From contig NW_026853862.1 in NCBI RefSeq assembly GCF_026571515.1, forward strand, positions 1 through 64,000: a stretch of 64,000 nucleotides of DNA. Direction: 5' to 3'. The stretch's first letter is position 1; each line of letters starts with the position of its first letter. The position numbers and the translations under genes were made by a program. The notes under the pieces were generated by a model. It was not told the origin of the DNA. It ran no database searches and saw only the letters and a program-made list of their open reading frames with translations. This document shows positions 9,559 to 45,064 of this stretch, piece after piece. The stretch is from Ruditapes philippinarum. Taxonomy: Eukaryota.

Positions 9559-9702
9559 NNNNNNNNNNNNNNNNNNNNNNNNNNNNNNNNNNNNNNNNNN
9601 NNNNNNNNNNNNNNNNNNNNNNNNNNNNNNNNNNNNNNNNNNNNNNNNNNNNNNNNNNNNNNNNNNNNNNNNNNNNNNNNNNNNNNNNNNNNNNNNNNNN
9701 NN
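9559..9702. other. Assembly gap (144 N)
   Basis: Run of N inside the right-hand inverted repeat. The matching stretch in the left copy is only ~55 bp. Confidence 0.99.
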
Positions 9703-11932: not shown

Positions 11933-12115
11933 ATCAGATTCAAGAATTCAGAGTGTGTTTATAAGCTTATAGCTTCCTTCACTTTTAAACTTAGATAATT
12001 TATAAACTGTGATATATTTAAGTCAAGCGTTAAAGATTACGACCCTTATTCTACCTAAATATGAGCAGTAGTATGACTGCTTGTTGATGAGTCTCTGTGT
12101 AAGGGTTGTTATTGC

Positions 12116-13903
12116 TTATTCTACCAACACTTTGAAAACTTTTATTTTATTTGGCATTCCCACAAACAATCTCTTAGTGACTGGGCAGTATGCAACTCTC
12201 TCTGGCTTATCTAAGCCATCATTTTTATCTATCAAAATCTTCACTTTAGTGAGGTCACTTGATACTTGATGGATATTTCCAGAGTGAAAACCACAAACAT
12301 ATACTGATCCATATTCATCAACAGCAAGTTGATAAGGTGTTTTCAATTGATCATCCTTGTAGACAGCCTTCACCTTACCATCAGGTTAAACAGGTGTGTG
12401 TTTTTTGCGATCAGAAACATATATCATAGTATTGTCAGGACTGACAGTTAAGTAGCAAGGTTCAATAAACAGATTTTGACCATTATCATCTTTGCCAAAT
12501 GTTTTCACTATTTCACCTGACATACTTAGAATCTTAACAATAGCTGGATTCCAATATGAAACTACAAGATAGGGATTCCTATAGGCAATACCAGTACAAA
12601 GACCATTTACTGGTATTTCAGTGATATCTAAAACTTTCATATCTTCTGAAAATGTTATAAATCTGATCATGCTTTCATTTGGAAATGTTACAGCAACTTT
12701 ATAATCTGAAACTTTTGTAATATCAAATGGATTTGAACAAAATTTTACGTCATCCATACGATTTGCCTGTGAATTTTCTAGTTTGTATATGACTAGGCTA
12801 CACTTTTTATAATCTGATATAAGAAGTGTATGTTCAGATAGGACAAATAAAGAGGATATGAGGTCAATGTGACAGTTGATATCAAAATTAAATACAACCT
12901 TCCTTACTACAGCTGATGCATCTACATTTTCAAATGTGAAAAACCTTGTTTCACTTTCAAGAGATAGTTCTGTTGGTTGAATGTCTGAGGTTTTGAGTTT
13001 GTAGTGCTGTATGTAGGCTTGTTGTATTTGTTCAATATTTTGGTGAAGTTGTTCACACAGTGGTTTTGTAGATTTCAATTTTATAAAAAGTTTACAGTTT
13101 TCACCTAATTTCTGGGCTTGTTCTAGATCAACAGTAAGAACCTTCAAGTTTTCAACCAAATTCAAATGTTCTGACTTGAGTACCTTAAATTCTGTGTTAG
13201 TGCTCAGAACCTTTTCTTTCATATCTGTTTCAGCTTTTGTTATCTTGTTTTTAACCATTCTCTCCTTTTCAGACAACACTTGAACTAGATCTAACTTTTC
13301 TTGCTTCAACTTTGCAATGGCCTCTTCCATCATTTTATCAAAGTCATCAATAAGATCTTGATGTTGTTGTTTTTAGGCTTCTATCAGTTTATCTTTGTGC
13401 TCCTTACATGCTTCTATTGCCTGTTCTTCTTGTTTGTGAACCACTTTACTATTGTCATTTAACAGCTTTTCTGTGTCTTTTATGTAAACAGTCATTTTAT
13501 CCAATTTCTGTTGAAGGTCTTTTAGTTCATCACTATTTTGTATGCCTGAAGCAACGGTTGGTAAATGGTTCACGTCACTACATTTAACATGCTCATTATC
13601 CTTGCATTTTTTGCAGGCTTCTTTGCTACACTCAGAGCAGTAAAACTTGATCAGCTGTTGAGGATGATTGTAACACTTTTCTAAATAAAAATCTTGTGGC
13701 ATACTGTCACTATCTTGAATTTTGTGAGTTTTTGATTGTCTCTTATGATATTTTTGACAGGTCACACATTTATATTCCACACAATCCACACAGAAAGCTA
13801 CAGCGGGTGTATAGCCATCACCATGTTTTTCACATTCTTCACAGTACATTTCCTTAACTTCATCTGAGTCAAATGTTGTTGATGCACCGTCATCAGTAGC
13901 CAT
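12116..13903 (-). pseudogene. RING-less TRIM-like gene (B-box x2, coiled coil, NHL-like beta-propeller), copy A, disrupted
   Basis: Three collinear ORFs (13373-13903, 12386-13333, 12116-12373) homologous to the intact 597-aa copies. There is an in-frame TAA at 13373-13375 and small deletions near 12385-12395. Confidence 0.88.
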
Positions 13904-14729
13904 TTCTTTCTCTTTTTTTTAGGAAGTTTAGAAAATTCCTGATTTTCTGAATTTCTTTTAATGTATCCTTTCCCTTGAAGTAAAGTACAATGTATTCGAG
14001 TTTGAAAGGTTTTCTTTAAGAGATTTTTTCGATTGTTTTGAAAGTTATAACATAGGCCATATAATTATATACATGTAATGATATGTGATCATATGAGGGA
14101 CCAAAGGTTTTGTTTAATTTTATGATATGGTAGTTTGATAAGCCTGTATCAGTTTTATAATGTTTAAAGTTAAAATCTGTGTTCTTGTTATCAAAATAAT
14201 ATCAGTTCACTCTTGTTGTAAAATCGTTCTACCTTTGACTTTTCTTGATAATACATGTATCTAAGGCAGTTATAATGTAAAGGTATGATACTGGATCAAG
14301 CAGTGCATGTCTAGATAAAAGAATAAAATGAGATCTTTTAAAAGAGTTGAAATTAAAGACATTCTGCATTTCTGCATGCCTGTACTTTTGATATCTGGAA
14401 AATATATGTGAACAATGTGGTTTTGTTTGGACTACAAAAGTTATATAAACCATAGCCTTAGGATAAACATTGGCTATGCCCTGAATATCACTTAGTTTTT
14501 ATGCCCGTCATGATGATAAGAGGTTACATGCGTTTGAAAACCTTGTACTTCTCATAACTCTGTCATGCTTCAAGGGATTTTGAAATAATTTGGCACAAAT
14601 GTGTAGCATGATAGACGGTGTTTAATGGGCATGGCCTATATCCCTTTTCTTTAATACAATTATTCTTATTCAAAATTCAAACAGTGATTTTGTAAACTTT
14701 AGGATGTAGATATATAGCTTTATACATTC

Positions 14730-15090: not shown

Positions 15091-15996
15091 GAACATGTAA
15101 ATAGATATATTTTTTCAATTATTTTATAATATTATTAATAGGAGATGTGTATGTGCATATTGACCTTCATGGTGCTAGCAGTGTGATTATCAAGCATGAC
15201 ACTGGGGGAACCAATACCACCAAAGACTCTGAATGAAGTTGGAACCATGGCTATATTTAACAGTGCAGCCTGGGATGCTGAAGTGGTAACCAGTGCCTGG
15301 TGGGTGTATCCTAGTCAGGTATCAAAGACTGCGTCCTCTGGGGAGTATCTCGCCACTGGTAGTTTCATGATCAGAGGTTGGTAAATGAAAAATATGACAT
15401 TCTTTCACTTGAATATTTTAGATTTTTTCCATAGAAATAGTCTTTAAATTATAGCTTTTAATCCGAATTGCTGGAACATTTGCAAAATTGTTGCTTTATG
15501 ATTGGGAAGATTTTGAATAAATTGGCACAAATAATCACGAGACTATGTGCTTATGATATGCATGGTACAACATCAAGGTCGTGGTTGGTTAAAGGTAAAA
15601 AAATACACATTTATGTCCATGCGGAAGGGGATTTAGCTGTTCTTTAGACTGCCTTTTTCTGTGTTAATAGGCAAGAAATTCAAAATATTTGTTTTCTGCT
15701 TAAGAAAGGATAGGTATAGTTTTTGGAATCTGATTAAGTGGTATGCCAAAATATAAATTAGTCTTTAATACCATGCATATTGAAAGTAATTATAATTGTT
15801 AAAACCGCACACCTTTAGATTCATGCTAATTTTCATCCAACTTACAATCCATGTGAATTACCAAAAAGAATTCAAAATAATCATCTGATGATGAGCAAAC
15901 AAATAATGATAAAAGTGATGATACTGATAGAGAAAATGCCAAAAATGACTCAAAGAATGACGAAAAAGCAGATAATAGTGCAAGTACTAAAGTAAA

Positions 15997-16158
15997 AGTA
16001 ATATAGGTTATTACGCTTCTCCCCCACCCTAAAAAAAAAAAATATCATCCCGTTATACCCCCAAATTGAAAAGTACAGAAATGCTTAAATCATGATAATT
16101 ATAGTACCCGCCAAAAAAAAAAAAATTTTTATCCCCGGCGGGACTCGAACCCGCGACC
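15997..16158 (+). repeat. Polinton left terminal inverted repeat
   Basis: Reverse complement of 31733-31895; differences are mainly homopolymer lengths and a few small indels. Confidence 0.93.
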
Positions 16159-16199
16159 TCTAAACCCGAAAAAATTATATTAATAAAAAGTAAAAAAAA

Positions 16200-16846
16200 C
16201 TATATAATTTCCAAAACACAACTAATTGTTAATCCATTGTTGTTTATTTTCTGACCTTTCTCATCACAAACGCTTATACTTAATTCAGAAATATCACCAT
16301 GTGTCAATTGTTTGTATTGTGGATTACTAAAATTAATATGAACAATATCACCGAATGGTTTATTTTCAACGGGAACAACACAAAGAATATTACTAGGAGC
16401 ACCATCAAAGAAATTGTAAGAACTATTTATCTGCTCAAGATGAACATATAGTTGTTTATAAGGTGCAAAATCTATTGTTCTTTCACCGTAGTGCGTTTCA
16501 TTAGCAGTAAATCCTTTCTTATTTTTTAAACCCTAATATTTGTTTTTAAACCTTTACTTATATTCAAATTATCTGAAGTAATTAAAGAGGCAATACCATT
16601 TGTTTCATTTACAGTTAATGTAATATTATAATTGTCAAATATATCTACTATTTGTTGAAAACTGTAATAACCATTTGTAATCTTGTTAGGACTATCAAAA
16701 TACTTTGTATATATTCATCAATTAAATTATACCAACCTATAGTATAAGTAAAAACTCTTTAATCCGATTCTCTTATTTCCACATTTGTTATCTATATATT
16801 GTAGCAAATTTATAGTGTTTTCAATGTTTGAAATTGTTTGATACAT
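16200..16846 (-). pseudogene. Minor capsid (penton-like) protein, frameshifted as assembled
   Basis: Pieced translation MYQTISNIENTINL...GWYN...ITNGYYSFQQIVDIF...VNETNGIASL...PYKQLYVHLEQINSSYNFFDGAPSNILCVVPVENKPFGDIVHINFSNPQYKQLTHGDISELSISVCDEKGQKINNNGLTISCVLEII* fits the single jelly-roll minor capsid pattern of Polintons. Confidence 0.7.
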
Positions 16847-16862
16847 TTTTTAATGAATAAAA

Positions 16863-18220
16863 ATGACAGTACATAATTTCAAATACAACAAAGAAGTAGT
16901 TTATAATACAGGAGGAATATACCTTTAAAAACCTATAAATATAATAAAACAATCCGTTATTATTTCATCAGATAAATAAAAGTTTTAATGCGGATTTCCC
17001 AAATATATTTGAAAATTACCTATTACCAAAAATATCATCAAATGAAATAGTTAATAGATGGAATGCAGACTGGTTATCGTTTTTGGCAAAATCAATTAAA
17101 CTTTGCTATATGGGTGTGCTACTATACAGGTTGTGGTATAGATGTTAACAACCATTTAAAAGCAGGAGGGTTGACCGGTTCACTATTCTTATTTCACGTT
17201 TACTACCAAACAAGAAGAATATTATTTGAATTATCTATTGCCCTACCACAAGATAAAAGTTGGAATGCATTTAACAACAGTTATGACCGTGGTGCTTACG
17301 AAAGAATATGTAAAGAGTTTAATGTAGACCCTCATTCAGATTGGAGACAAAAAATGTATCCGAGTGGTGATGGTTTAGGATTAGTTCACACAACTAGTCA
17401 CTCTGCATGGAAACGAACTGATTTTAGACATGATTATTCTTCAAAACATATTTCTAGCAGCACATCATCTGATTTAGATTTAACAAAAATGACATTCGGA
17501 CCAGAAGTTCCAGGTGGAAGAAAATGTGGTATTTCATCATGCGAATATCTTCCACCAAAGAAAATTCATATTGATTATATTCAACAAGAAGATGATGTTA
17601 AGCGATGTTTGGATCTAATCTTATTCTCGATACTGCAGAAGGTTCTCGCGAGAGCAGGCGGCGTTCACGGATTGAACGAACAATATAGAACTATGCTGGC
17701 TATTCTTGTTCCACCAAATCTCAAACAAGAACTGATTAACCGGAAACAGGAACAGCTTTTGATGCGCGCAAAAGAAAAGTTTCTTGCAATGTTGAACGAT
17801 GCTATCAATACCCTTAGATTTACAGTATCCTAAATAACCGATGATCAAAACCACATTCAAAATTGCAGAAGTAAAGTGACTATTTTACGGAATTGGCTTT
17901 GTACATGTTCCTCCTCAATCCTGGAATAAAATTGGAGAAATACAAACTCTAATAATAAAATTAAACAAAATGATATCAAAAAGCTCGGATTGAATAATGA
18001 TGTTAATATTCAACCAATTCCAACAATTATACATACAGAAATTAAAGGAACGCCAACAAAGAAATCTTTACCAGAACCTAAAGAAATAGCTAAATCTTTA
18101 GTTAAAGTGTCAGATGTAATAGAAAAAAATATATCAATAGAACACGAAGATAAAAGAGCAGCATTAATCGTTGGTAGTATAGTAATAGGTATTATTACAT
18201 TTTACTTTTTACGAATATAA
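16863..18220 (+). pseudogene. Polinton hypothetical protein with C-terminal transmembrane segment, frameshifted as assembled
   Basis: ATG at 16863, core ORF 17063-17833 (FWQNQLNFAIW...FHVYYQTRRILFEL...AYERICKEFNV...DWRQK) and tail ORF 17990-18220 (HEDKRAALIVGSIVIGIITFYFLRI). Confidence 0.6.
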
Positions 18221-19513
18221 TTATTAGCAGTTGCATACAACATTCCGACAACAAGAACAACTACAGCCCATAAATGTTCACCAAACCAGGATACAACTTT
18301 ACCCGCGGAAGAAAGCAACCAAGAAACAATAGCACCGATAATACCGGGCAATGCTTCTGCAGCTTTACCAGCTAGAGTAGCTAACAGTTTACCAAGATTT
18401 GATAATTGTTTTTTTATCCAGTCTTTTACACCACTTCCATCTTTTGGAGGAGGCTTAGGTGTTGTAGTTCCACCACCGGTAGTAGGAATTAAAGTCTCAA
18501 CAATAACACCAATAATCATTCCAAAAGCAGTTAAAACACTAACAATTGTAATTCCTTGTTCTCTAAATAATGTTTTTATTCTCTGAGCTAATGTAGTGTC
18601 TTCTTTTAATACTTTATTTATTGTTTCCTTTATCCTATTTACCTGACTACGTAATTTATCTCTATAACATTAATTACTTCCAGTCTTGCACTTTTTTTTC
18701 AAACTCCAAATCTCTTATTCGACTACTTATCCTTTCTCTATTTGGAATTCATCATTATCTGATTTGGCTTGTTCTAATTTATGTTTTTCTTTTTTCTATG
18801 TCTTTATTTGTTTCATTCAATTTAGTCAATTCATTTGCAATCTCTTCTTTTACAGTAGTCATTGCTTTGAGGACACCATCCATTTCTCTCTTTGTCATAT
18901 CTGTTTGTGTTTCTTGTTCGTCAGTAAATGATGTTTCTATTACTTTCACTGCAGTTTCAGCTGCATTAGGTAAATCAGTCATTTCTATATTATCAACATT
19001 AGGTAGATCATCTTTCACCTTTTGCAAGCTTTTAGCCGCTTGTGCTGATAATCGTTTTAGTTGTAGATCTATAATCAGGTAAGCTTAATAAGTCTCTAAT
19101 TTTATTTTGCTCCACCACTACCAATTCTACTCGACAAAGAACCCAAGTTTATAAAACTACCACCTTTTTTGGTAGTAATTTGAATATCTATATCACCTAA
19201 CTTTAAAAATAGTGTTTTATTATCAGGACCAAGTTCAAAGTTTGAATAATCAATAAATACTGGGTCTAACCCATACTTTTTCTTTTATCAACTTGTAATA
19301 TTCTTTAACTACATATTGTTTCTGTTTTTACTATTAATTGTGTTCTTGTATCAACATCATCACCGATATCCTAACGCAATATGAGCACTTTGGTTTTGTA
19401 TAGTTCTATTAAATTCATAATCATCATCTACAATTAATTATTATCCTCATCATAGTCATCTTTATTATCAAACGCAGAATTATCAAATTTCAAATTCGCC
19501 TTGTCAAGCCCAT
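18202..19513 (-). pseudogene. Coiled-coil protein with hydrophobic/amphipathic C-terminal helices (putative membrane-active virion protein), frameshifted as assembled
   Basis: ATG at 19513, acidic N-terminus, coiled-coil ORF 18779-19027 and C-terminal ORF 18202-18519 (KDWIKKQLSNLGKLLATLAGKAAEALPGIIGAIVSWLLSSAGKVVSWFGEHLWAVVVLVVGMLY). Confidence 0.6.
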
Positions 19514-19560: not shown

Positions 19561-20873
19561 ATGTCGGCTTTTGGAGAAGAAAATTACTAACCCCGTACAC
19601 TGAAAATTCAATAAGAGAACCACGTGGTTATATCCCCACAGAGGAATTCGTCAGCAGTGTTGTTATAACCAATAATCATTTCAACTATTGACCAAAAATC
19701 AAGAACGACATCCACAGGTCGAGATTTCCTAATCTAAGTAGCAATCGCATTTATTGTTCCCGGATCAGTCAGATTAAGCATTTGAAATTTGAACGAAACT
19801 CTAACAAGATGTAAATGCAACAGTATATCATGAACATAGGGACCAGAGGCAGATAATTAAGAAAACAACAATTAGAATAAGTGGAGCAAAGTTATGTCTA
19901 TTGATGATAGCGATATTTACCATTGTTATATCGATTTATGGAAGTCTCCCCCTGAACGTTTAAATATGGCCTATCAAGGTATCGGTAAAAATAATATGTT
20001 AAAACATAGGATTGGTGCTGCAGATGCTTCATCAGACAAAGAAGACGAGGCTGTAGCAAAAGCATACAAGAACAGATTTTGCATCCCACTTGATTTTGAA
20101 CTATTAGAAACTCATATGCCATTTTATCAAGCTGGTCTTGGTGACAGACTCGAATATGAACTTACTTTCAATGATTATGAAAAAGTAATTAAATCAACAG
20201 ATGCTACTTCAAGTTATACAATCAAAAACATATGTTTGGAATTCGATATGGTGTCTGACCCAGAACTTGCAAGACAAATAAGACAACAGGTAGATGGTAA
20301 AATGGTTATTTTATATGACAGAATACTAAGACACAGAAAAATAACTAAAAATAAATCTGATACGCTTTGGAATATTAATCTAAATGTTCCTGCTAGAAAA
20401 GTATGAAAGGTATTCTAATGTTAATCGAAGACCCGGAAAGAACATCAACTGAAACTTATTACAATCCGAATATAACAAAGCTAGAAATGACAATAGAAGG
20501 CAGTCCCGAATCAACTCATACAGTCAAGGAATGAAATCTTATCAACAGTGGGATGAGATAAATAAATCCCTTGCTTTTAAATTCAAAACGAAATAAAGAA
20601 ACAAGTATGATTGTAAAAGATTTATGTTTCACTAGTACAAACATTAAGAAAATATCTAACAAACAATTATGCATTATGGTTAGATTTACGTTCAACGGAT
20701 GAGAAACACCATGGTCTTCCGGAGAAGAATGAAAAGTGCAATCAGAAGGGTATAACAAACAAATCGAGAAAGAAGCAGGAGCATGAACTACTAAATTTTA
20801 CTTTATATATTATACAAGATGCACAATTAGATTTTGAAGAGGGTAGATCTTAAAAAAGAAATTAGTGTATTGA
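19561..20873 (+). pseudogene. Major capsid protein (double jelly-roll, hexon-like), frameshifted as assembled
   Basis: Core ORF 19894-20406 (NRFCIPLDFELLETHMPFYQAGLGDRLEYELTFNDY...YTIKNICLEFDMV...WNINLNVPAR) continues out of frame with MKGILMLIEDP...YYNPNITKLEMTIEG and ends YIIQDAQLDFEEGR. Size (~430 codons) and position next to the ATPase are typical. Confidence 0.8.
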
Positions 20874-21552: not shown

Positions 21553-21860
21553 CTAATGCTATTAGTAATGCTTTAGAAATGTTTTAGTAATGCTTTAGGG
21601 CAATGCTTTAGTAATGCTAAAATCATATAAAATAAAAATAAAATTTTTACTTAAGTATGCTTAAGTAATGGCTTTAGTAATGCTATAGTAATGCTTAAGT
21701 AATGCTGAAAGTAATGCTACTAGTAATCGCTATAGGTTTTTACATAATGTTTTTTAAGTAATCGCTTTAGTAAATGCTATAGTAATGCTATAGTAATGGC
21801 TTTAGTAATGCTTAAGTAATGCTTTTAGTAATGCTTTAGTATGCTTTAGCCAATGGCTTA
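21553..21860. repeat. Internal 11-bp tandem repeat array (AGTAATGCTWW) in two blocks
   Basis: About 20 degenerate copies of AGTAATGCTTT/AGTAATGCTAT/AGTAATGCTTA, separated by an AT-rich spacer at ~21621-21650. Confidence 0.88.
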
Positions 21861-23670: not shown

Positions 23671-26600
23671 AATAACCATAAGGTAAAGTATCTATTATCC
23701 ATTATCACATATATATCTTTTATCATCAAAAGTAGATAAACCTATTTTAAATCGATTCATTTAAATATATATTTATGTTTTTTATGTACTAAATTATTCA
23801 TTTTTTTATGAATTACTTTTTTCTTTAATAAACAATCTTCATATGATTCAGTATTAAATTCTTTTTTAGTTGTTTTATTAACACCTTTTGCAGTACATTT
23901 TGAATATAACATTAGAATCTTCTAAATATTCAAAACTATACATTTTACTTCTTATTCCAATGAAATTTGTCATTACATTCCTCTCCTAATTCATCTTTAA
24001 ATTTTCCAAAATTCAACTTTTTTATTTTTATTTGAAAACAATGGATGCTCCTTAGGATAATTAGACAAGTATCTAAATTTTCATTTATTTTTCTAAATCA
24101 GAATATAAATCTTCTGTATACTATATATTTAATACCATGCTGTCAGTATTCTTGATATAAAAGTTCATTATTTGGAAAATACTTTTCAATTGTGTCATAA
24201 TAAAACTTGTACATTACTAATTTAGAATAATCTAAAAACACACATTCCTAAATAAATAGGTTTTAGTAAAGTACATTGATTTATAATTTAATAACACTGC
24301 TTTAAAATTATTATTAAAATCTATAATTATCTTTGAAAATTATCGTTTAGAAGCTAATCGTTTTAAGTCTTCGGGTTTATTTATTAATTCAACTATACAT
24401 CTATTAGAAATATTTTCCAAAGTTTTTCCATAGAAAGAATTATTAATTAATTTCCAGAAATCTTTTTCAAAATCATTTGTTGCTTTTGCTTCTCAATCAA
24501 TATATGGTTTAACCAAGCTTTATGATTAAAGGATATTATACTATGAATCTTTGATACTTTTATTCCAAGATATATGTAATATTTTAGAATATCATAATGT
24601 ACAATATACTCTTTTTTATCATGAAGATCTAATATTAATTTTTCAACTTTTCCTAATTTATTATTATTTTGTTTTAAAGAAATCTCTTTGAATAATCTGA
24701 TATTCATTTTCATTAATTTTTCTTGATAAAGGCATAGTAGGAAACTTTCTTAATTTAATTTTTGTTATTTTATCATATTCTAAATCTACTTTAAAAATCA
24801 TTCCAACATCTTCATTACATTTATCTAAATAATATTTATTTCCTGATTTTCTACTTCTTCCCATTTAAAATTTTTATAAGGTAATTTTGCTGATAATCAC
24901 ACACCCATATAAATTATTTGCATCGGTATACCATAAATAATTAGGTTTATCTATTTTCTCATTTTTATTTGTATATTTATTAAAAGCTTTAACATATCTT
25001 GAACCTAATACTCCTGAAAATCCTCCTCTTGTTCCTCTTCAATCATAATCTTTCATATCTTTGTCTGTTAACAAATCTAATTCAATACCAGTATACTTTA
25101 ATCCTGCATTCCATGATAAACCAGGAGCAGAATAACAATAAGCTGGATCTATTTCATAATGTTTTAAACATATATCTCTAAAATTTTCAAATACATCTGC
25201 TAATATTAAAACATCAAGTTTCTGATATATCATTAAGTAATCTTCAAATGTTTTACAATATTTATTAAATATCTTTTTACCATGATTATATTCTTTTTCA
25301 GAAATATCTTTTTGATATAATATAGAATAAAATTCTTTTTTATCAGGAAAATTTTCTAGTTTTAATTTATCAAAAGAATCAAAATAATCATAAGGAAATA
25401 TTCCTTTAAAACTTCTTTCATTATTTTCAATATATTTTAAATCTTCAAATAAAGTATCATCCGATAATTCCCTTTTAAGTATTTTATATTTATCATCTTC
25501 TAATGTTTTTGATAAATTATCTATACTACTTAGTAAAAATCTCATACTATCTTTAAAAAACTAACTTAAAATATTTATCTCCGAATGTTATTGATATATA
25601 ATTTTCACTATCCTTTGGTAAAACTTTTACTTTATTATATTCAGTTTCATGTTTTAATAGTTCTTCTGTTAGGAAATGGAAATCATACCCACTTCCATTA
25701 TGAAAAAAGATTGGAAATTGTTTCCCATCTCTAGATTCTTTACTATTACAACTGGAACATGAAATTCCTCTAAATTCACCTGATAAATGATCATGTTCTA
25801 TTATCTTTTCCTTTCTTTCTAATTTCTTTTTACACATATAACAACAATCAGAAGTATTATATAGTTCTTCTTTTTCCTTTTTAAAATTTTTTCTGCATGA
25901 TAATAAGCCCACTTGATTTATCATTATACTTTAAACATGTTTTTATAAAATCTTCTTCGGCATTTTCACTAGGTGCATAGTTAATATTTTTATTCGGTAT
26001 GATATCCGGATAATCAGAAACTAATTGTAAATTATATGAAACTACTTTCTGTTGTTGTAAATTTATTGTATTATCTTTAAATGATAGTTTGATATTTTCT
26101 CTTTTTATTTTATTTCGTAGATTATCACTAATTTCGCTAATATCTTTTTTAATTTTTACTTTATTATTTTCACAATATTTTTCTTTTTCATATTCTGATA
26201 TTTCTATATGTCTACCGTCCTTCAATCCATTTATCAAAAATGTTGTCTATTAATTTGTTCAAAATATTTTTTTAATACAATTTTCTTTAATTTTATCCAA
26301 ATATATTTTAGTTCTTTCATCAGATATTTTATTATTAACATAATTATGATAAATTCTTTTAGCTTCTTTTTTAGATATTTTCTTCTTCTTTCATTATTTT
26401 ACCGATAATAATATTCTTTACTTTAGAATTAACATTATGAGATTTACTTTTTATTTTTAATTTATTTATTTGTTTTCGTAGGTCTACGTCAATATAACTT
26501 AATTTTATATTAATCGCTTCAAAGTCTGCATATCCGACAAATGGTAGTTTTAATTTAAAATGATGATTTTCAAATTTACATTTACTTCCTTCTGGTGGCA

Positions 26601-27589
26601 TTATAAATTTAAACGGTTCATTTTTTTGCAATCTTTCATATGTTTTTCTAAAGCTTTTTCAGTAGTATATGAAGCAGTAATACAATTTCTACAATGATAT
26701 CTTTTATTATGATTATGATAAGATAAGCATTAAAATCTTTAATTAAGCAATAATGTTTTTTGTCATTTAGAGTGACATGTAATAAATCTATAACATATTT
26801 TCTATCTTTAAATTTACTTATGTACATTGGATAAATATCACGTAAATTTTTTTCTTGTTGTGGTTTTTTAAAATCTTTATTTTCAGGATCTAAAAGTTCC
26901 TTTTCAATTCCGAATACATTAATAGCTACATTTTCATTTTGTTTTTCAAATGTTCCAATTGAATCTATACTTACTGGGAATTTAATATTTTCCATATTAA
27001 TATGATCTAGAAAAGGTTTATAAATTGATACTCTTGCTGGGTTTTTATTCATTTTTTTAAATATATCTGAATATTTTTTTTATCTTCAGGTTTCTCTTTT
27101 AATTTATATAGCATTCCAGCAATTACACTATAAGCAAAACAGTGATTATCATTGTTTTGAATATTTAATAAACTATTGAATTTTATTCCTAGATCAAAAT
27201 AAGAAGATCCATTTAGACTTCTTACTCTTACAACTTTAACTTCCGTATTTTCTATTTCATTAAATATTAATCCAGATTCTTTTCCCTGATGTTCTTCTTC
27301 CCATACTTTATACTTTTCAATAATAGAATTATATACTTCATTAAATTCATTTTGAGCATATGAAGTTTTATAAATCCGCTATTATAATGTCTCTCTATTT
27401 TTTCATCCATTGCTATAGGCTTTGAATAAATAGTTTTATTATTAGATTAAATTTAACATTAGGAAATGATGAAACTAATCTTTTAATATCTGGTTTAATA
27501 TTTCTAAAATAATTATTTATATTAATACCACTTTTATTAATAACTTCCTTAACATAGTTTTTATTGCTACCGGATTTTTTGAATCCCAT
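23663..27589 (-). pseudogene. Protein-primed family B DNA polymerase (pPolB), frameshifted as assembled
   Basis: Motifs in order: ExoI GYADFEA; EndoVII-like Zn motif CYMC...EHDHLSGEFRGISCSSCN; ExoII FHNGSGYDFHFL; KGIFPYDYFDS; ExoIII YQKLDVLILADVFENFR; GTRGG; YTDANNLYG; KLINNSFYGKTLEN; disrupted YxDTDS near 24140-24160; C-terminal LSTFDDKRY...TLPYGY. Confidence 0.93.
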
Positions 27590-27614
27590 TTTATTAGAAA
27601 ACAATTTGAATAAG

Positions 27615-27833
27615 CTATAATTTTTTATCGTGATAATAATTAGGATTTCTTGTCATAAATTCTTGAAAAGCCTGTTTATATTTTTCTTTGTTTTTTTGAT
27701 AATGTTTTTGTTTCATAGGTTTATTACATTGTATACATGCAGATTTAACTCCCATCGCAAAACCTTTTGCTTTATGATATTCGCTTAGTAATTTGTATTC
27801 ATTACATTTTGTACAGATTTTTCCTTCTGTCAT
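27615..27833 (-). CDS. Small Zn-binding protein (CxxC...CxxC, basic tail), 72 aa
   Basis: MTEGKICTKCNEYKLLSEYHK...SACIQCNK...; intact ORF with TAAAAAATG start, divergent from the integrase. Confidence 0.7.
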   Translation of the reverse strand: MTEGKICTKCNEYKLLSEYHKAKGFAMGVKSACIQCNKPMKQKHYQKNKEKYKQAFQEFMTRNPNYYHDKKL

Positions 27834-27849: not shown

Positions 27850-28801
27850 ATGGAGCATCCGAAAATATATTGTTTACGTTGTAAAAAACATACCGATAAT
27901 GATTCAGTAGAGCAAGTAACAACAACTAATAATAGACAAATGCTAAAAGCTAAATGTTCTGAATGCGGATCTAAAAAAAGTAGATTTATAGCTGGTTTAA
28001 CAAATAAATTAGCAGATGAATTACATCATAGAGTTATAAAAAAAATTCCTAAAAGACGCATTTATGTTCATTCAGTAGATCAGACATGGGCAGTTGATTT
28101 GGCAGATGTGCAACAATATTCGAAACAAAATAAACACTATAAATATTTATTAGCAGTTATAGATGTTTTTAGTAAATACGGTTGGCTAATTCCCTTAAAA
28201 AATAAAACAGGAGTAACGGTAAGTGAAGCATTTAAAACATTATTTGAAGAAAGAAAACCAATGTATATTTGGTCAGATAAAGGTTCTGAATTTTATAACC
28301 GGCAAGTAAAAGAATTGTTAAAAGAGAATAACATAAAGTTATATTCAACTGAGAATGAAGAAAAATCTAGTGTAGTAGAACGCTGGATAGGAACAATGAA
28401 ACAACGTATGTTTAAATATTTTACTGCTCACGAAACTAATAAATATTATGATGTATTAGATGATTTAGTTAAAGATTATAACAATACAGTTCATTCTTCT
28501 ATTAAAATGACACCTGTTGAAGCAATTAAAAAAGAGAATGAATCAACAGTGTATGAACATTTATATCCGGAAAAAGAAGAAGTAATTAAAAAACCTAAAT
28601 TCAAAGTTGGAGATAGAGTAAGAATTGCAAAAATGAAAGGTAAATTTGAAAAAGGTTATACAAACCCGTTGGAGAAGAGAAATATTTGTAATTGATGAAG
28701 TTTTAAATACAGATCCTGTTACTTATAAAATAAAAGATTTAAAAGATGAAGAAATTAAAGGAAGTTTTTATGAACAAGAATTACAGAATACTGATTTTTA
28801 G
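27850..28801 (+). CDS. Retroviral-type (rve) DDE integrase with N-terminal Zn ribbon; one frameshift near 28665
   Basis: MEHPKIYCLRCKK...AKCSECG Zn ribbon; catalytic WAVDLAD, WSDKGSEF and ENEEKSSVVER; YNNTVHSSIKMTP; PKFKVGDRVRI. The C-terminus continues in another frame as EIFVIDEVLNTDPVTYKIKDLKDEEIKGSFYEQELQNTDF* (TAG 28799-28801). Confidence 0.92.
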
Positions 28802-28810
28802 AATATAAAA

Positions 28811-30201
28811 ATGAGTATCTTTGGAATCAAAAAACATAAAAGAAACAACTCTGAACTTGGTAATAAAATGAATATACCATTAGATATGAGCGGTAACTCT
28901 ATAATTAATTTAGGAAATCCAGAAAAACCAAGTGATGCTGTTAGCAAAAGATTTGTTTTTAGGAAAATTAAAAGTGTAATAGACGACTATGAATTGGAAG
29001 ATATAAAAAACATTAAAGACTTACTTCAAACAGAAAAGTCAGACATTGATCAACTTTCTGAAAGTATTAAAAATAATGAAGAAGCAATAATCACACTGCA
29101 CGGTCAACTCCAGAAAGAAATGGCAATCTTATCAGAATCACTTAGTAAAACAGATGATGAAATAAAAGTTGCATTAAGGCAAAACATTCTTTTAATCGCA
29201 AACCGAATTGATAACATAAAGAATAGCATGATTAAACACAACGAACTTAAGAACAAATTTGCTGAAGCTGAGAAAAAGCTACAAAATATGTATAAGTTAG
29301 AAATAAAAGAAGAAATAAAAACGTTAAAAGATGACTCAACGGAATTGTTTAATACATTTTCTGAAAAGTTTGATGAATTCAAAGCACAACTAGAACAATC
29401 TGCTTCACAAAGAAACGATGCTCAAGATGGAGAAATTAATAATTTAAAAGTTAAATTAAATCAAATGAAAGATTTGCTTACTAATAATCTGCAGAAAGAA
29501 ATTACCAGACTTGATGTGGATGTTAAGAAAAATGCAGATGATACTAGAGATGCAGTTAACAAAATAGATACAAAAATAGAAAGTCTCGAAGAGGTTCAAA
29601 CAAAACGTGTTAATGATTTAGGTAAAACAATACTTGATACAGTCTCAGACCTTTCAGAGGCGAAAAGGGCGATTTCTGATATTATTAACAACAAAATATA
29701 TCATGTTCCTTTATTACATATGCGGAATGATTCTACTCTAGAAGTTAAAGTTTTACCTACTACTTACGAAATCGGTAAAAATAATCGTTATATTAAAACT
29801 CATAATCTATTTAAGTTTTTTAATTATCATTATTCACCTGTTGTAAATTATAATGATTATATAGAAGAGGAACTTGATATGAATATAGGTGACTTTAGAA
29901 ACGTGAGTGGTTTTACAACTAAAAAAGATGGAACATACTACATTAATATAAAACTTATAATAAAGGGTAAAAGCGACTTTTTATTGATATGGCAGGAAAA
30001 TTACAGATCTGAAAACGAAGACAGGACTCATGAAGTACTTTTAAAAAGATCAACAGTACTGATGAAAAATTTTTTGAAGACGTTATAAAGCAACAGTTTT
30101 TAAAGAATACATCAATTGCAATTATTCCAGTCTCGGTTACTGACCAATTATTTACTATTGAAAAAGGCAGCTACATTAGATTTACATATTCTTGGGAATA
30201 A
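28811..30201 (+). CDS. Putative fibre/receptor-binding protein (neck motif, long coiled coil, beta-rich head); ORF 28811-30088 plus frameshifted tail to 30201
   Basis: N-terminal LDMSGNSIINLGNPEKPSDAVSKRFV fibre-neck-like motif, ~240 aa of heptad coiled coil and a C-terminal GFTTKKDGTYYINIKL. The alternative frame continues KINSTDEKFFEDVIKQ...GSYIRFTYSWE*. Confidence 0.7.
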
Positions 30202-30228: not shown

Positions 30229-30872
30229 ATGAAGACACCAACAGCTCCGGATCCTTTATATCCAGAATTACCAGTAGAAGATGGACAAAATTATAGATTA
30301 CAGAAGATATCAGAAATAGAAAAAAAATTAATTAATGAGAGGGATACTCGTAAATCATTATACAAGAAATATAAACGCGGAATTAATATAACTGACGGTG
30401 TTGATACTGGTTTAATATCAACATCCGTTATTTTAGCCGGTACTAGCTTAGCTATTCCTTTTATGTTACCTTTAGGAATTGCAGCCGCTGTATGCGGAAG
30501 TTTAGGAGTATGTGTTAAATTTATTAGACGTAAATTACAATCAAAAACAAAAAAAAACATTATGAGATTAAAACTATTGCTGATAGTAAATTAAATAGTA
30601 TAAAAGATTTGACTTCAAAAGCTTTAACAGACGGACAAATATCTGAAAATGAATTTAAATTGATTTTAGATGAATTAGATAAATATAATAAATTGAAAGA
30701 TAGCATACATTCAAAACAAACAGGATTGAGTGAGACAGAAAGAAAAAAGTTAATAGAAAAGGGAAAAGCACAGGCTTTAAACGAGTTAAAAAAAAAAGGT
30801 AAATGTATAATTTTATTCACTAAAGTTACAATAGTAAATGATCCTCCACCTATTTATTCAAGCATAAACTAA
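30229..30872 (+). CDS. Polinton membrane protein with central hydrophobic hairpin and ESCRT late-domain-like motifs; one frameshift in the A-run near 30550
   Basis: ORFs 30229-30594 and 30609-30872 join across an A10 run: MKTPTAPDPLYPELP...YRLQKISE...LYKKYKR...(hydrophobic)...KHYEIKTIADSKLNSIKDLTSKALTDGQISENEFKLILDE...NDPPPIYSSIN*. Confidence 0.75.
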
Positions 30873-31310: not shown

Positions 31311-31732
31311 GTATTTTTCTTCCGACAAATTGACTGGTTTTAAAATTGCATAATTTACAATATATTTCTCGTTCATACCAAGATGTTATTTAGACATGAT
31401 AATAAAACATAAAATTTAAATATATATTTATATGTATATGTGTATATGTGAATTTTACATTGTTTTAATTTGTTAAAGGGAGGTAATGTTATCGGAAAAC
31501 AGTATTAAAAATAGATATTATGTTTAAGTTATCAGACCATAAAGTTAACCACAAAGAGCAGTCAGTCGTTTCAATGTGTTTACATAAAGTACATTAATAA
31601 ACCACAGGCATTTATAAATTTAAATGTAGTATTTTAAGTGCATAGATTTAAACGTTAGTGAATTTTCGTTTTATAAAATTTTAATGTTTTCAAGGGATCC
31701 CTCTAGAGGTTAATTTTTTTTTATTTTTTATG

Positions 31733-31895
31733 GGTCGATGGTTCGAGTCCCGCCGGGGATAAAATTTTTTTTTAGGGCGGGTACTATAATCATGATTTAA
31801 GCATTTCTGTACTTTTCAATTTGGGGGTATAACGGGATGATATTTTTTTTTTTTTTTTTTTAGGGTGGGGGAGAAGCGTAATAACCTATATTACT
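31733..31895 (-). repeat. Polinton right terminal inverted repeat
   Basis: Reverse complement of 15997-16158, ending ...CCTATATTACT and followed by the TSD AGTAAA. Confidence 0.93.
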
Positions 31896-32894
31896 AGTAA
31901 AGTCAAAAGATACAAATGAATCAGACAGTTGTGAAACAAGTGGTAAAACTGAAGATGATATGGATGACAAAGGCTGTGATAATACAAAAAGTGATATGAT
32001 TTGAGATGGTGTTGACACCAGTAAAGGAGAAGTTGATAATGATGGGAAAAATATATCAATGTGAAACCAAAAAAAAAAAAAAAACAACAGAAAATGTGGT
32101 AGAGTTCACAGATACGGAAATTAGTCTGCATCATGTGAAAGGAGATAAGTAAGTTTTATTTTCTGATCATTTTACCTCATATATATGCGATTCAACGCAT
32201 TTTTGACCCTCCCCCTTTGTTTAAAAAAGTGATCTTTTTTTTCCTTCATCGCCAAAGAAATTTTGGACTTGTTAGAGGCTAAAAATGGCCTTAGGTCAAT
32301 CGTAAGGTAACGAGCAACCAACACTGAAAAGCCTTTGACTTAATCTCAATCCATTGAAAAGTGGCAGCACTCTGAAATCAGTTTTGATGGGAAAGATAAG
32401 CGCAAAATAATGATTTTTGGCAATTTTGAGATGCCCCTTCATGGCAATGGTAACCCTTCGTTACCCTTACAAAGGCTATGGTCCAGTTAACATTTGTGCC
32501 ATGTTTGGTCAGCATTAAATCATTTTTCACAGTTTCATAGCAATTTGAACTTGTAACAGGAGGCTTTTCAATGAAAACAGCCATTTTTCACAAAATGATT
32601 ATGAAGTTATGGGTTTACGACATTTTGTTAACCTCTTTTGGATGTAGTTGATTATATTTTATCCAATTAAGATATGCACAGATCTGTTAAACGTTTCTGC
32701 TATTATGAGTTTGTTCAAAGACCACAAACCTTCAAGAAAATTTAAGAAGATTGGTACCAAGCTTGGTTTTGAGTTATCCTGATCCAGTTCAGCAGTGATA
32801 TTTTATTTAAGTTCTAACTTATTTCAACTAAGCTTTTTTATGAGGAAGATATATTAATTAAAAAAAATGCACTTAGAAGTAATAATGATTAAGA

Positions 32895-39712: not shown

Positions 39713-40270
39713 AAACCAGTCTTTAATCATATATTTGTGTTTATGCATTTTATAAGTATGAAACATTTACAGATATCAGATGTTTTATTGAAAGCAGACA
39801 CGCAAAATTACAAAGATAGAAATGTAAAAAAAATGAACTACTATCAATTGAAACTAGCAGGCAATTACACACATATGTTAACAATATTTTCATTTCTTGT
39901 TTTATCATGTACTAGCTGAATATTGCATTTCAAGATTTCATGTTGTATGGCTTTGTTATTATCAGGTTCAGCTAGTTATCTGATGATTGCTGGCCACATG
40001 AGGTCAAACTCCATGTGGGGCAAGTCGTTGAAACTTATTATTATATTTTGTGCTTATTAATGGTTTAGTTTAGGAGTGGATTAAGGAATACAGTGTGTCT
40101 TTAAGGTGATAGCTTCCTTCACAGTCAAAGTTAAATAAAATCTGTATAAATGAAGATTACATGTGTCATATTTCAGTTAAGTGTATTTAGGATTATGACC
40201 CTTATTCTACTGCAATAAAGCAGTAGGATAAATGCTTGTGATGAGTCTTTTTGTCAATGTCTGTTTTTGT

Positions 40271-42068
40271 TTATTCTTGTAACACTTTGAAAACTTTAAC
40301 TTTATTTGGCATCCCAACTAACAATCCCTTGGTATAAGCGCAATATGCAAGACTGCTTGGTTTATCTAATCCATCATTTTTATCTATTAAGATCTTCACT
40401 TTAGTGAGGTATCTCGATAATTGATGGATATTATCAGAAGCAGCTCCACACACATATACTGATCCATAATCATCAATAGCAAGTTGACGAGGCATTTTCA
40501 AATCATCATCCATGTAAATGGCCTTCTTCTTACCAGCAAATGTCAAACAGGTCACGGTGTGTTTGTTCGGATCAGAAACATATATCATAGTATTGTCAGG
40601 ACTGACAATCAAGCGCCAAGGAGTAATAAACAGTTCCTGACCATTATCATCTTGTTTAAATGTTTTCTGTATTGTTCCTGTCATACTTAGAATCATGACA
40701 CTACCTGGATACAAATATGAAACCACAAGACAGTGATTCCTGTAGGCAATACCAGTGCAAAGACCTTTTCCTGGCATCTCGGTGATACTTGAAACTTTCA
40801 TATCTCCTGAAAATGTTATCAGTCTGATTAATCTTTCATTTGGAAATGTTACGGCAACTTTAAAGTCTGAAACTTTTGTAATGTCCCACGGACTTGTATA
40901 AAATTCTATGTTATCCATACAATTTGCCTGTGACTTTTCTATTTTGTATATGACTAGTCTACACTTTTTCCAATCTGATATCAAAAGTGTATGTTCAGAT
41001 AAGACAAGTAAAGAGGATATGACGTCAATGTAACAGTTGATATCAAAATTGAAAGCAACTTTTGTTTCTATTTTTTCAAATGTGAAAAATCTTGTTTCAC
41101 TCTCTAGAGATTGTTCTGTTGGTTGAATGTTGGAGGTTGTGTGTTTGTAGCACTGAATGCAGACTTGTCGAATTTGTTCAGTATTTTGTTGTAAGGGTTT
41201 CACACATTTGTTTTGCTAACTGTAATTTGATAAAAAGTTCACAGTTTTGACCTAATTTTTTGGCTTGGTCTAGATCAGAAGTAAGAACCTTTAAATTCTT
41301 TACCAAATATAAATGTTCTGACCTTAGAACCTTAAAGTTTGTGTTTGTGCTAGCAACCTGTTCTTTCATATCTGTTTCAGCTTTTGTTATCTTGTTTTTA
41401 AATTTTCTATCCTTTTCGGATAACTCTTCAACTAGTTCCAACCTTTCTTTCTTCAACCTTTCAATGGTCTCTTTCATCTTCATATTAAAATCTTCAATGA
41501 GATCTTGATGCAGTTGTTTAAAGGCTTTAAATAGTTTATCTTTGTGCTCCTTGCATGTTTCAGTTGCCTTTTCTTCTTGTTTATCAACCACTTCACTTTT
41601 GACATTCAAAAGCTTTTCTGTGTCTTTTATATCAGCATACAATTTATCCAAGTTCTGTTGAAGGTCTTTAAAGTCTTTACTTTTTTGTATGCCCGAAGCA
41701 AGTGTTGATAAATGGTTCACGTCTCTACAGTTTACATGCTCATTATCCTTGCATATTTGGCAGGCTTCTTTGCTACACACAGAACAGTAAAACTTGATCA
41801 GCTGTTGAGGATGTGTGGAACACTTCTCAAAATAGAACGATTGTGGCATCTTTTTACGATCTTGAATTATGTGAGTTTGTGTTTCTCTCTTATGATATTT
41901 TAGGCAGGTCACACATTTATATTCTACACAATCCACACAGAAAGCTACAGCTGTTGAATAGCCATCACCATGGTTTGCACATTCTTCACAGTACATTTCC
42001 TTAACTCTGTCATCGTGTTGTGTTACTGAAGCACTGTCATTCGCAATCATTTTATTTTGTTCAGTCAT
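40271..42068 (-). pseudogene. RING-less TRIM-like gene, copy B, with a single +1 frameshift (possibly a sequencing error)
   Basis: ORFs 41178-42068 (B-boxes CEEC...FCVDCVEYKCVTC..YH, CSTH...YCSVC...C..C...H, coiled coil) and 40271-41203 (NHL-like blades) join if one G is removed at GGG 41195-41197. Confidence 0.85.
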
Positions 42069-42818
42069 TTTAGGAATATCTTCATTGTATCGACTTTTTT
42101 GTTATTATATCCTTTCCCTTGAAGTAAAGTAAATGTAATAGAGTTTGAATGTTTTTCTTTAAGACATTGTCATGATTATTTTAAGGTTACTTTATAGGCC
42201 ATATATATAATGATAAGTGATCATATGAGTGACCAAAGTTTTTGTTTAATTTTACCATACGACAGTTTGATAAGCCAGTATCAGTTTGATAGTGATTGTA
42301 AATTGTTATCAATGAAATGTCAGTTCATTCATGTCATAAAAACTTCTACCTTTGACTTTCTTAATTATACATACCTCTTAGGCGGTTATTATATAAATAA
42401 ATAATAATAGCTCTAATGTCCTGATAAAAGAAGTAAATCAGATATATTACTTTTTATTTAGTTTTTGATATATTTTCCCCATTATTCATATAGTTAATTG
42501 TATACATAGTAAATTTAATTTAGATTTACTGATATTTCAAGATTTCATGTTGCATGACTAAGTTGTTATCACATTGAACTAGTAATCCAACGACTGCTTG
42601 GTCGCATTGGTTCGACAAGCTGTTGCTTCCTTGATAAAAAAAATGAAATATTTACTGAATACGGGTTGTTTCCTAGAACGGATTCAAGAATACAGAGTTT
42701 GTATTAAAGTTGATAGCTTCCTGGGCAATCATACTTAATAAGGACACTCATTCCATCCTAATGAGAGGAGTATTTAAATTTAGTTGTTGATGATTCTTTG
42801 TGTAATAGTTGCTATTGT

Positions 42819-44612
42819 TTATTCTAGTAACACATTGAAAACTTTAATTTTGTTATACATTCCCACAAACAATCTCTTGGTATTTGGGCAGTAGGCCACA
42901 CTCTTTGGTTGATCTAATCCATCACTTTTATCTATCAAGATCTTCACTTTTGTGAGGTCATTTGATAATTGATGGATATTTCCAGAGTGAATACCACACA
43001 CATATAGTGATCCATATTCATCAACAGCAAGTTGTTGAGGTCTTTTCAGTTGATCATTCTTGTAGACAGCCTTCACCTTACCAGCAAAGGTCAAACATGT
43101 TACAGTGTGTTTTTCCCAGCCAGAAACATAAATCACAGTATTGTCAGGACTGACAGTTAAGTACCAAGGTTCAATAAACAGATTTCGACCATTATCATCT
43201 TTGTCAAATGTTTTCACAATTTCACCTGACATACTTAGAATCTTAACACTAGCTGGATTCCAATATGAAACTACAAGATAGTTATTTTTGTAGGCAATAC
43301 CAGTACAAGGACCATTTCCTGGTATCTCTGTGATATTTAAAACTTTCATGTCTCCAAAGAATGTTATCAGTCTGATTATTCTTTCTTTTGGAAATGTTAC
43401 AGCAATTTTATAATCTGAAACCCTTATAATACCAAATGGATTTGTTTTAAAGTTCATGGAATCAATATAATTGGCTTGTGACATTCCTAGTTTGTATATG
43501 TCTAGGTAACACATTGCATAATCTGATACTAGAAGTGTATGTTCAGATAAAACAAGTAAAGAGGATATGACATCAATGTGACAGTTGATATCAAAATCAA
43601 AGACAACTCTTCTTTCTACATATGATGCATGTACCTTTGCAAATGTGAAAAATCTTCTTTCACTCACTAGAGATAGTTCTTTTGCTTGTATGTTAAAAGT
43701 TTCAATTTTGAAGCGCTGTATGTAGGCTTGTTGAATTTGTTTAATATTTCGGTGAATGTTTTCACACATTTGTTTTGTGAACTTCAATTTAATAAGAAGT
43801 TCACAGTTTTGACCTAGTTTTTGGTCCTCTTCTAGTTCAGCAATATGTGCCTTTAATTGTTTGACCAAATTTAAATGTTCTGACTTGAGAACCTTAAAAT
43901 CTTTGTTTGTGCTAACAACCTTCTCTTTAACATCATTTTCAGCTTTTGTAATTTGGTTTTTAAATTTTCTTTCGTTTTCAGATAACTCGTTAACTAGTTC
44001 TAACCCTTCTTTCTTCATTCTGGCAATTGTTTCTTCTATCTCCTTATCAAAAGCATCAATCACATCTTGATGTTGTTGTATGAAAATTTCTATTAGTTTC
44101 TCTCTATGCTCCTTAAATGCTTCAGTTGCCTCTTCCTCTTGTTTATCCACCACTTCACTTTTAGCATGCAACAGCTTTTCTGTGTCTTTTATTTCCTCTA
44201 ATAATCGATCCAAGTTCTGTTGAAGATCTTTTAAGTCATCACATTTTTGTATACCTGAAGCAAGGGTTGGTAAATGATTCACATCACCACATTTTACATG
44301 ATCATTATCTTTGCATTCTTGGCAGGCTTCTTTGCTACACTCAGAGCAGTAAAACTTGATCAACTGTAGAGGATGTGTGGAACACTTCTCAAAATAGAAA
44401 TCTTTTGGCATACTGTCACTATCTTGAATTTTGTGAGTTTTTGATTGTCTCTTATGATATTTTAGACAGGTCACACATTTATATTCCACACAATCCACAC
44501 AGAAAGCAATAGCGGGTGTAAAGCCATCACCATGATTTTCACATTCTTCACAGAACATTTCCTTCACTTCGTTAGATTCTTGTGATGATAATGCGCGGAC
44601 ATTAGCAGACAT
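42819..44612 (-). CDS. RING-less TRIM-like protein (B-box x2, coiled coil, NHL-like beta-propeller), 597 aa, copy C
   Basis: Intact single-exon ORF with B-box1 CEEC...FCVDCVEYKCVTCLKYH...H, B-box2 CSTH...YCSEC...CQEC...H, a coiled coil and propeller repeats (PWYLTVSPD...IYVS, PQQLAVDEYGSLYVCG, PKSVAYC...LFVG). Confidence 0.92.
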   Translation of the reverse strand: MSANVRALSSQESNEVKEMFCEECENHGDGFTPAIAFCVDCVEYKCVTCLKYHKRQSKTHKIQDSDSMPKDFYFEKCSTHPLQLIKFYCSECSKEACQECKDNDHVKCGDVNHLPTLASGIQKCDDLKDLQQNLDRLLEEIKDTEKLLHAKSEVVDKQEEEATEAFKEHREKLIEIFIQQHQDVIDAFDKEIEETIARMKKEGLELVNELSENERKFKNQITKAENDVKEKVVSTNKDFKVLKSEHLNLVKQLKAHIAELEEDQKLGQNCELLIKLKFTKQMCENIHRNIKQIQQAYIQRFKIETFNIQAKELSLVSERRFFTFAKVHASYVERRVVFDFDINCHIDVISSLLVLSEHTLLVSDYAMCYLDIYKLGMSQANYIDSMNFKTNPFGIIRVSDYKIAVTFPKERIIRLITFFGDMKVLNITEIPGNGPCTGIAYKNNYLVVSYWNPASVKILSMSGEIVKTFDKDDNGRNLFIEPWYLTVSPDNTVIYVSGWEKHTVTCLTFAGKVKAVYKNDQLKRPQQLAVDEYGSLYVCGIHSGNIHQLSNDLTKVKILIDKSDGLDQPKSVAYCPNTKRLFVGMYNKIKVFNVLLE

Positions 44613-45064
44613 TTCTTACTTTATTTTCCAGGAATTGATTGTCTCAATTTTTTTTTATTATATCGTTCCTCATAAAAAATGCAGTTTAGAGTTTAAATGT
44701 TTTTCTTTAAGAGATTTTCATGTTTATCATGAAGGTTATTATATAGGCAATACATATCATCATAACTGAGGGACCAAAGATTTTGTTTAGCTTTACCATA
44801 CGATAGTTTGATAAGTCTGTATCAGTTTGATAGTGTTTAAAGTTAAAATCTGTGCTCTTGTTATCAGTAAAATGTCAGTTCATTCTTGTTGTAAAATCAT
44901 TTTACAGTTGACTTATCTAGTTAATGCATGCATCTAAGGCTATCATGTTGTAGAGGAATGATACTATTGAATTTAATGCCCAGATAAAAAAGTGAATGAG
45001 ATGTACTACATTTTAAAGAGTTTTTGGTAACAACATTAACGACAGCTGATGCATGTACATGTAC

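Follow-up and report, generated by a model that had tools for sequence, protein, structure and literature searches.

Late domains of retroviruses, filoviruses and tiger frog virus are described as sharing the same host partners for three classes of motif, P(T/S)AP, LYPXnL and PPxY, and a vertebrate iridovirus buds via ALIX, TSG101 and NEDD4 (PMC4880917). NS3/NS3A of bluetongue virus (Orbivirus) is described as having two hydrophobic segments, the first preceded by basic motifs, together with a predicted coiled coil, PSAP and PPRY motifs and two isoforms; it drives non-lytic exit of a non-enveloped capsid and is viroporin-like (PMC7409164). The adintovirus maps of Starrett et al. include a gene labelled 'SLATT', next to the entries for Hydra and Stylophora (PMC8502044, Suppl. 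Fig. S2). For Polintons themselves, a nematode fusogen (PC1) suggests enveloped particles, and Jeong et al. leave envelopment beyond nematodes for study (PMC10748475); in the sources accessible to us, envelopment was proposed only for nematode Polintons, and virions of vertebrate Mavericks have gone unseen (PMC8097293).

We found no paper linking Polintons with ESCRT in the openly accessible literature (subscription papers lay outside the scope of the search), and the papers that mention both appear unrelated. The words 'budding', 'egress' and 'envelop' were absent from PMC8502044, 'budding' and 'envelope' from PMC8097293, and 'ESCRT' and 'budding' from PMC10748475, PMC12220804 and 10.64898/2026.06.19.733378.

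Here we describe a hairpin protein of ~192 residues encoded by a Polinton, which we are inclined to read as an ESCRT-recruiting membrane-exit factor with a PPxY tail added by slippage. Like NS3, it is small, has two hydrophobic segments and late motifs, is predicted to sit in a membrane and is encoded in two forms; no homology is claimed. Unlike NS3, which belongs to an RNA virus and, as described, has a 21-aa luminal glycosylated loop, the hairpin protein has a turn of ~6 residues, LYPxL is its dominant motif, and its PPxY is located on a C-terminal alternative-frame tail. The same three motif classes, interchangeable in position, are described for HIV p6, EIAV p9, RSV, Ebola VP40 and tiger frog virus L-domain proteins (PMC4880917). 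However, retroviral and filoviral late domains are mostly found on Gag or matrix, whereas here they lie on what is predicted to be an integral membrane hairpin, encoded by a DNA virus that integrates. The protein also resembles the SLATT (SMODS/SLOG-associating 2TM) proteins of adintoviruses, PLVs and giant viruses, which are helix-hairpin-helix proteins with two hydrophobic segments. The family was probably annotated before as SLATT-like, and it is probably the adintovirus 'SLATT' of Starrett et al., compared here by label only. In contrast to the hairpin protein, published SLATT is accompanied by no mention of late-domain motifs or of a −1-frame tail in the available text, and PLV SLATT is read as an entry pore (PMC12220804). 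In the openly accessible literature we found neither the family's late domains nor its selected PPxY tail in an alternative frame. Finally, nematode PC1 is an entry fusogen, whereas the hairpin protein is a candidate exit factor, and no fusogen was recognised in the present Polinton.

The Polinton and its hairpin-protein gene

The window, meaning the whole 64-kb stretch of DNA analysed, contains a Polinton of 15.9 kb, which ends in inverted repeats and is flanked on either side by AGTAAA, its 6-bp target-site duplication. The hairpin-protein gene is located close to its right end. The features used below are as follows.

15997..16174, no strand: left terminal inverted repeat, with target-site duplication AGTAAA at 15991-15996
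16203..16849, minus strand: broken gene, likely for a minor capsid (penton) protein
19876..20406, plus strand: fragment of a double-jelly-roll major capsid gene (ESM Atlas)
24450..27652 (bounds approximate), minus strand: protein-primed DNA polymerase B in fragments, including an endonuclease-VII-like domain (Pfam)
27850..28695, plus strand: retroviral-type integrase (PF00665, rve, E 6.5e-12)
28811..30088, plus strand: long coiled-coil protein gene, adjoining the hairpin gene upstream, co-oriented with it and broken near its end here
30229..30594, plus strand: hairpin gene, first piece, departing from the family frame at the A-run 30549-30557
30238..30249, plus strand: PTAP, TSG101-type late-domain motif
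30256..30270, plus strand: LYPEL, ALIX-type late-domain motif
30406..30516, plus strand: uncharged hydrophobic hairpin tip T60-V96, with basic clusters on both flanks
30558..30872, plus strand: hairpin gene, second piece, with conserved helices 2-4, the lysine run and the tail
30776..30797, plus strand: candidate slip sites, U UUA AAC (30776-30782) and the lysine A-run (30788-30797)
30798..30872, plus strand: PPxY tail, with PPIY at 30846-30857
31717..31895, no strand: right terminal inverted repeat, with target-site duplication AGTAAA at 31896-31901

The integrase is accompanied by the protein-primed polymerase, whose fragments matched PF03175 (DNA_pol_B_2) at E 2e-4, under the curated cut-off, and PF02945 at E 2e-9. 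The capsid fragment matched an ESM Atlas DJR-like cluster at 0.98 (PF21738 on 24% of its members) and a Capsid_N cluster at 0.96, with a recognition value of 1771, below the guide value of 2300. Pfam detected neither packaging ATPase nor capsid in the 64-kb window; another Polinton copy gave a weak match to a packaging ATPase of A32 type (Pox_A32, E 0.0025, below the cut-off). The Atlas capsid fragment and this weak ATPase match agree with the Polinton gene set. Pfam scanning of 50 of the 94 window fragments gave no match to an adenovirus-like maturation protease; the copy is fragmented. We take the gene at 16203..16849 to be a likely penton gene. In the metagenome locus L031 its homologue, a penton-like gene, is followed by a coiled-coil gene and then by the hairpin gene, all co-oriented. 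The 1.4-Gb genome of the host animal, a clam, contains 51 matches to the hairpin gene.

Several further observations were made around the element. The Polinton sits within what seems to be a single acidic low-complexity open frame, possibly a host exon (15830-15996 and 31896-32000). The inner part of the terminal repeats (16118-16174 and 31717-31773) contains GGTTCGAGTCC, a sequence resembling a tRNA T-loop or Pol III B-box. An ORF piece at 18205-18669 on the minus strand, whose long C-terminus is amphipathic and hydrophobic, is a second candidate membrane-active protein, perhaps of the Cupiennin or GasderminX class named by Starrett et al.; Pfam matched nothing in it at E 0.01. The stretch separating capsid from polymerase includes a short AGTAATGCT-like unit in a degenerate tandem arrangement (21560-21860). 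Outside the Polinton, a tandem repeat with a unit of 145-146 bp occupies 2-882, and another element of ~3.6 kb with nested inverted repeats occupies 6146-9766. A TRIM/NHL-like host gene, which begins with a Cys/His-rich, B-box-like part and continues with a coiled coil and a beta-propeller-like end, is present in at least four copies (12100-14300, 40270-44970 and 59930-61930).

The original prediction was of one Polinton membrane protein carrying PTAP, LYPxL and PPxY around a central hydrophobic hairpin, and PTAP, LYPEL, PPIY and the hydrophobic stretch T60-V96 are indeed read in the sequence. A six-frame count over the whole window gave one PTAP-type, two LYPxL and two PPxY motifs, one of each within the hairpin gene. 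The gene consists here of two ORFs split at the A-run 30549-30557. The prediction came with the warning that the PPxY assignment depends on the frame through two A-runs, to be verified in reads. At the first run, the spanning contig differed from the window in all four public short-read data sets from the same organism, so the break is either an error of the assembly or a change specific to this copy. At the second run, short-read contigs had several lengths, and the variation there is real.

N-terminal motifs and the shape of the hairpin

We examined the N-terminal motifs in 120 close homologues, where P[TS]AP was found in 110, YPxL in 118 and strict LYPxL in 95. The distant set was searched with the core only, to avoid selecting for motifs; among the best 150 of 1397 representatives (50% clustering), 114 reached the core start and 85 had an arm of at least 12 aa. 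The other 29 of the 114, with arms shorter than 12 aa, were set aside and reflect either truncated gene calls or real loss. As many as 73 of the 85 distant arms contained [LIV]YPx[LIV], compared with a mean of 0.4 and a maximum of 3 in 1000 shuffles, and strict LYPxL was present in 31. P[TS]AP was also present in 31 of the 85 (mean 0.8 and maximum 5 in 1000 shuffles) and absent from 54, and every arm carrying it had YPx[LIV] as well. In the 31 arms with both motifs, PTAP came first in 16 and YPxL in 15, a swap of order like that of viral late domains. The distance from YP to the core ranged from 6 to 46 aa, and the residue before YP was L, I or V in 73 of the 77 arms with YP. A second core-only set had [LIV]YPx[LIV] in 105 and P[TS]AP in 57 of 113 arms (7 of 120 were dropped). 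N-terminal PPxY occurred in 8 of the 85 distant arms, not clearly over chance (shuffle maximum 10). Short motifs that are kept in an arm of variable length and order look like binding motifs, and their conservation in flexible terminal arms is a feature shared with late-domain proteins.

A model built from 60 diverse sequences (pLDDT 88), superseding an earlier one from 30 close sequences (pLDDT 59), consisted of helices 16-72 and 79-134, which form a hairpin with a short turn, followed by two shorter helices. The Kyte-Doolittle profile of the hairpin tip peaked near 2.0, with a median of 6 K/R per flank in the 60 sequences, and there was no hydrophobic N-terminal leader. Given the basic flanks on both sides of a hydrophobic, short-turned hairpin, both ends are predicted to be cytosolic. 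This same-side placement of the termini is likely, judged from hydropathy and charge only, with the tip modelled either as two short membrane spans or as a re-entrant hairpin.

Foldseek retrieved uncharacterised proteins of invertebrate iridoviruses, namely S6DF61 (IIV-22), A0A5B8RH66 (Liz-CrIV) and A0A068QKD3 (Armadillidium iridescent virus), at E 8e-9 to 1e-7, with 27-30% identity and TM scores of 0.60-0.66, indicating homology to the hairpin protein as judged by fold and identity. Giant-virus proteins annotated as SLATT were weak fold matches (E 0.03-0.2). The two hydrophobic helices in a helical hairpin agree with the SLATT 2TM description. NCBIfam SLATT_1 matched 4 of the 60 members (best E 6.8e-6) and SLATT_4 matched 2 (0.11), and Pfam SLATT matched none of the 60 at E 0.01. 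A sequence search of PDB with the hairpin protein returned nothing under E 0.48, and Foldseek against PDB with the weak model (pLDDT 59) returned nothing at 1e-3. A BAR-like fold is not claimed, as the best VIA-align Z to BAR-type bundles was 11.5, below the ~13 that helical bundles reach through arrangement alone. An ESCRT-III-like fold is likewise unclaimed, since CHMP3 and PspA gave Z of 8.7-9.0 and the PDB matches were generic helical bundles. As to the adintovirus GasderminX, with its gasdermin C-terminal-like fold and pX-like domain, there was no gasdermin among the PDB matches listed or the Pfam matches. IMG/VR scans with three family sequences (A1, P0250 and P0248) gave no relative.

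The PPxY tail and how it may be reached

We analysed the tail in own-genome loci together with 9 metagenome loci. Of 32 loci, 14 (10 own-genome loci and all 4 metagenome loci) had the tail in −1 relative to the last helix; it was in frame at 9 loci, in +1 at 8, and otherwise broken at 1. The window copy is one of the 9; PPIY is in frame with its second piece, and this is a minority state. Among the 120 close homologues the tail was in frame in 16, one with a degenerate motif, and the other 104 had no in-frame tail, most ending a few codons past the lysine run at a short-form stop that matches 30808-30810. Conservation in homologues therefore held for the N-terminal P(T/S)AP and YPxL but not for an in-frame PPxY, and the prediction of one protein with three motifs fits the long form only, whereas the default product lacks PPxY.

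The tail is under protein-level purifying selection in its own frame, also where it lies in −1. In 23 distinct tail versions, stops in the tail frame were found in none, while the other frames were interrupted in 20 and 22. The tail's Leu, Phe, Lys, two Pro and Tyr were invariant, five of these with silent codon changes, and the x position of PPxY varied between K, I, V and R. Pairwise counts of synonymous and nonsynonymous changes (626/171) are inflated by relatedness, and hence distinct-codon counts were preferred. A stop followed PPxY by 2-4 codons in 30 of the 32 loci, and identity behind the tail fell from 0.86 to 0.42. An antisense gene as the source of the silent-site pattern was ruled out, because the antisense frame sharing the wobble positions was closed a median of 4 codons upstream and had an ATG in none of the 32 loci. 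In a relative of 64% identity the −1 tail is retained, with PPNY and an insertion that preserves the frame; a locus of 46% identity had the tail in no frame, and at the protein level PPxY was present in only 3 of 118 distant C-terminal arms. As read from these sequences, the PPxY is in a selected −1-frame tail of one subclade.

Directly behind the tail, the sequence changed abruptly between near-identical own-genome copies (L001-L030), and an unrelated accessory gene was seen there in the metagenome loci L032 (965-1930) and L035 (580-1442). A recombination point immediately past the tail is likely.

We consider it probable that the tail is translated. As for how it is reached, slippage of ribosome or polymerase in a fraction of products is the explanation we somewhat prefer to variation of A-run length or splicing. 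At every one of the 32 loci the lysine A-run contained the heptamer A AAA AAN in phase, which has the classical X XXY YYZ form of −1 frameshift sites and is partly expected from lysine codons in AT-rich DNA. The other heptamer, U UUA AAC (30776-30782), was ruled out as the shift site of the family, as it is not conserved. Past the A-run, 5 of 5 loci folded no better than shuffles (z +1.3 to −1.2; pseudoknots are outside the model), and the missing stable RNA structure counts against classical stimulated −1 frameshifting. Note that −1 products from poly(A) lysine tracts are described as possible (PMC4552401).

It is less likely, yet conceivable, that the length of the A-run itself sets the tail in frame through phase variation of the DNA during replication, so that any one genome would produce only the short or only the long protein. 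The length truly varies among genomic copies, and the long form can therefore be directly encoded. The tail was in frame in 9 of 28 own-genome loci, two of them (L015 and L017) being open from Met to PPxY; the several lengths among short-read contigs agree with this, as do the clusters P0002 and P0038, which have short-read (Logan) sources and are long forms. However, most of the 104 close homologues without an in-frame tail have a conserved short terminus, and all 4 metagenome loci with a 7-A run, as well as L033, have the tail in −1, yet it is free of stops. Furthermore, the many homopolymer breaks in the assembly and the 8 loci in +1 suggest that part of the spread of frames is decay or error.

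It is very unlikely that the tail is instead an exon spliced onto the hairpin gene or an upstream gene with no slippage: a T-rich sequence lies just past the short-form stop with an AG in many copies, but that AG occurs in differing codon phases in the two subfamilies and is missing in L019 and L021, silent changes ahead of it leave the encoded residues conserved, and the AGs further upstream lie within purine-rich sequence. RNA contigs from mollusc metagenomes covered parts of the gene body short of the tail, and had no joints there.

Proposed role in virion exit

In the mechanism that we propose, the hairpin tip would insert into a membrane with both ends in the cytosol. LYPxL would bind host ALIX and P(T/S)AP host TSG101, and the long form, its PPxY tail added via slippage on the lysine A-run, would additionally bind a NEDD4-family ligase. 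The ESCRT machinery so recruited may bud capsids out of the cell or into vesicles, wrapped in host membrane, giving non-lytic exit. Among known systems, bluetongue NS3 offers the nearest working model. Recruitment of ESCRT via the N-terminal motifs, as predicted from sequence and model, is well supported by the conservation, order swap and variable spacing of these motifs, the predicted same-side topology and the presence of host ALIX and UEV genes. By its motifs, the hairpin protein quite likely binds ESCRT, and by analogy it may well be used in virion exit, which we hold with less confidence than the binding.

In the main rival reading, which seems rather unlikely, the ESCRT adaptors are bound for trafficking rather than for virion exit. 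The protein would then act as a viroporin or pore of SLATT type, or as an adaptor directing host membrane proteins, or itself, into multivesicular bodies. The SLATT_1 matches in 4 of 60 members and the weak matches to SLATT-annotated giant-virus proteins speak for such a role. In addition, SLATT has been proposed as an endosomal-escape pore in cryptophyte PLVs (PMC12220804), and host membrane proteins are described as sorted by the same motifs, e.g., PAR1 by YPX3L (PMC3341166). On the other hand, three motif classes in a small viral membrane protein encoded beside virion genes mirror bluetongue NS3, and late motifs have no obvious entry role.

YPEL, and YPxL in general, also fits the YxxPhi adaptor signal. 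The N-terminal YPxL could accordingly serve as an endocytic signal, or play a structural part by packing against the helices of the same protein, with only an incidental likeness to late domains, which we regard as improbable. Absence of P(T/S)AP from 54 of 85 distant arms is compatible with this idea, as is the model pLDDT of 81 for residues 11-20, which suggests that this segment may be ordered. However, L, I or V precedes YP in 73 of 77 arms, as in ALIX ligands, the spacing to the core (6-46 aa) and the order relative to PTAP vary, YPx[LIV] accompanies PTAP in 31 of 31 arms, and the tail contributes, under selection, one more motif linked to ESCRT.

Under the exit reading, a conserved membrane protein with ESCRT motifs offers a concrete, testable exit route for animal Polintons, and, if this is true, would explain their spread without killing germline or host cells. 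A function is offered for an unnamed family of at least 1397 clusters at 50% identity, together with its iridovirus homologues, and viral SLATT-like proteins receive another reading, as factors of exit rather than entry. The selected out-of-frame PPxY tail, which gene callers overlook in the majority of copies, suggests that Polintons use recoding; if true, it would be a recoding-controlled late domain in a DNA transposon-virus. More tentatively, the protein may be a widespread, dedicated ESCRT-recruiting egress protein of animal Polintons, one they share with invertebrate iridoviruses, to which one Polinton clade adds a NEDD4-binding tail by slippage on an A-run.

With respect to the host partners, ALIX-type V-domain genes and UEV genes were present in the host genome. 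An exon of host ALIX was 96% identical to a clam ALIX, and the clam ALIX retains F676, a residue with a role in LYPxL binding. UEV-domain matches were found at 11 places in the host genome, several of them paired on one contig, possibly reflecting an expanded UEV family.
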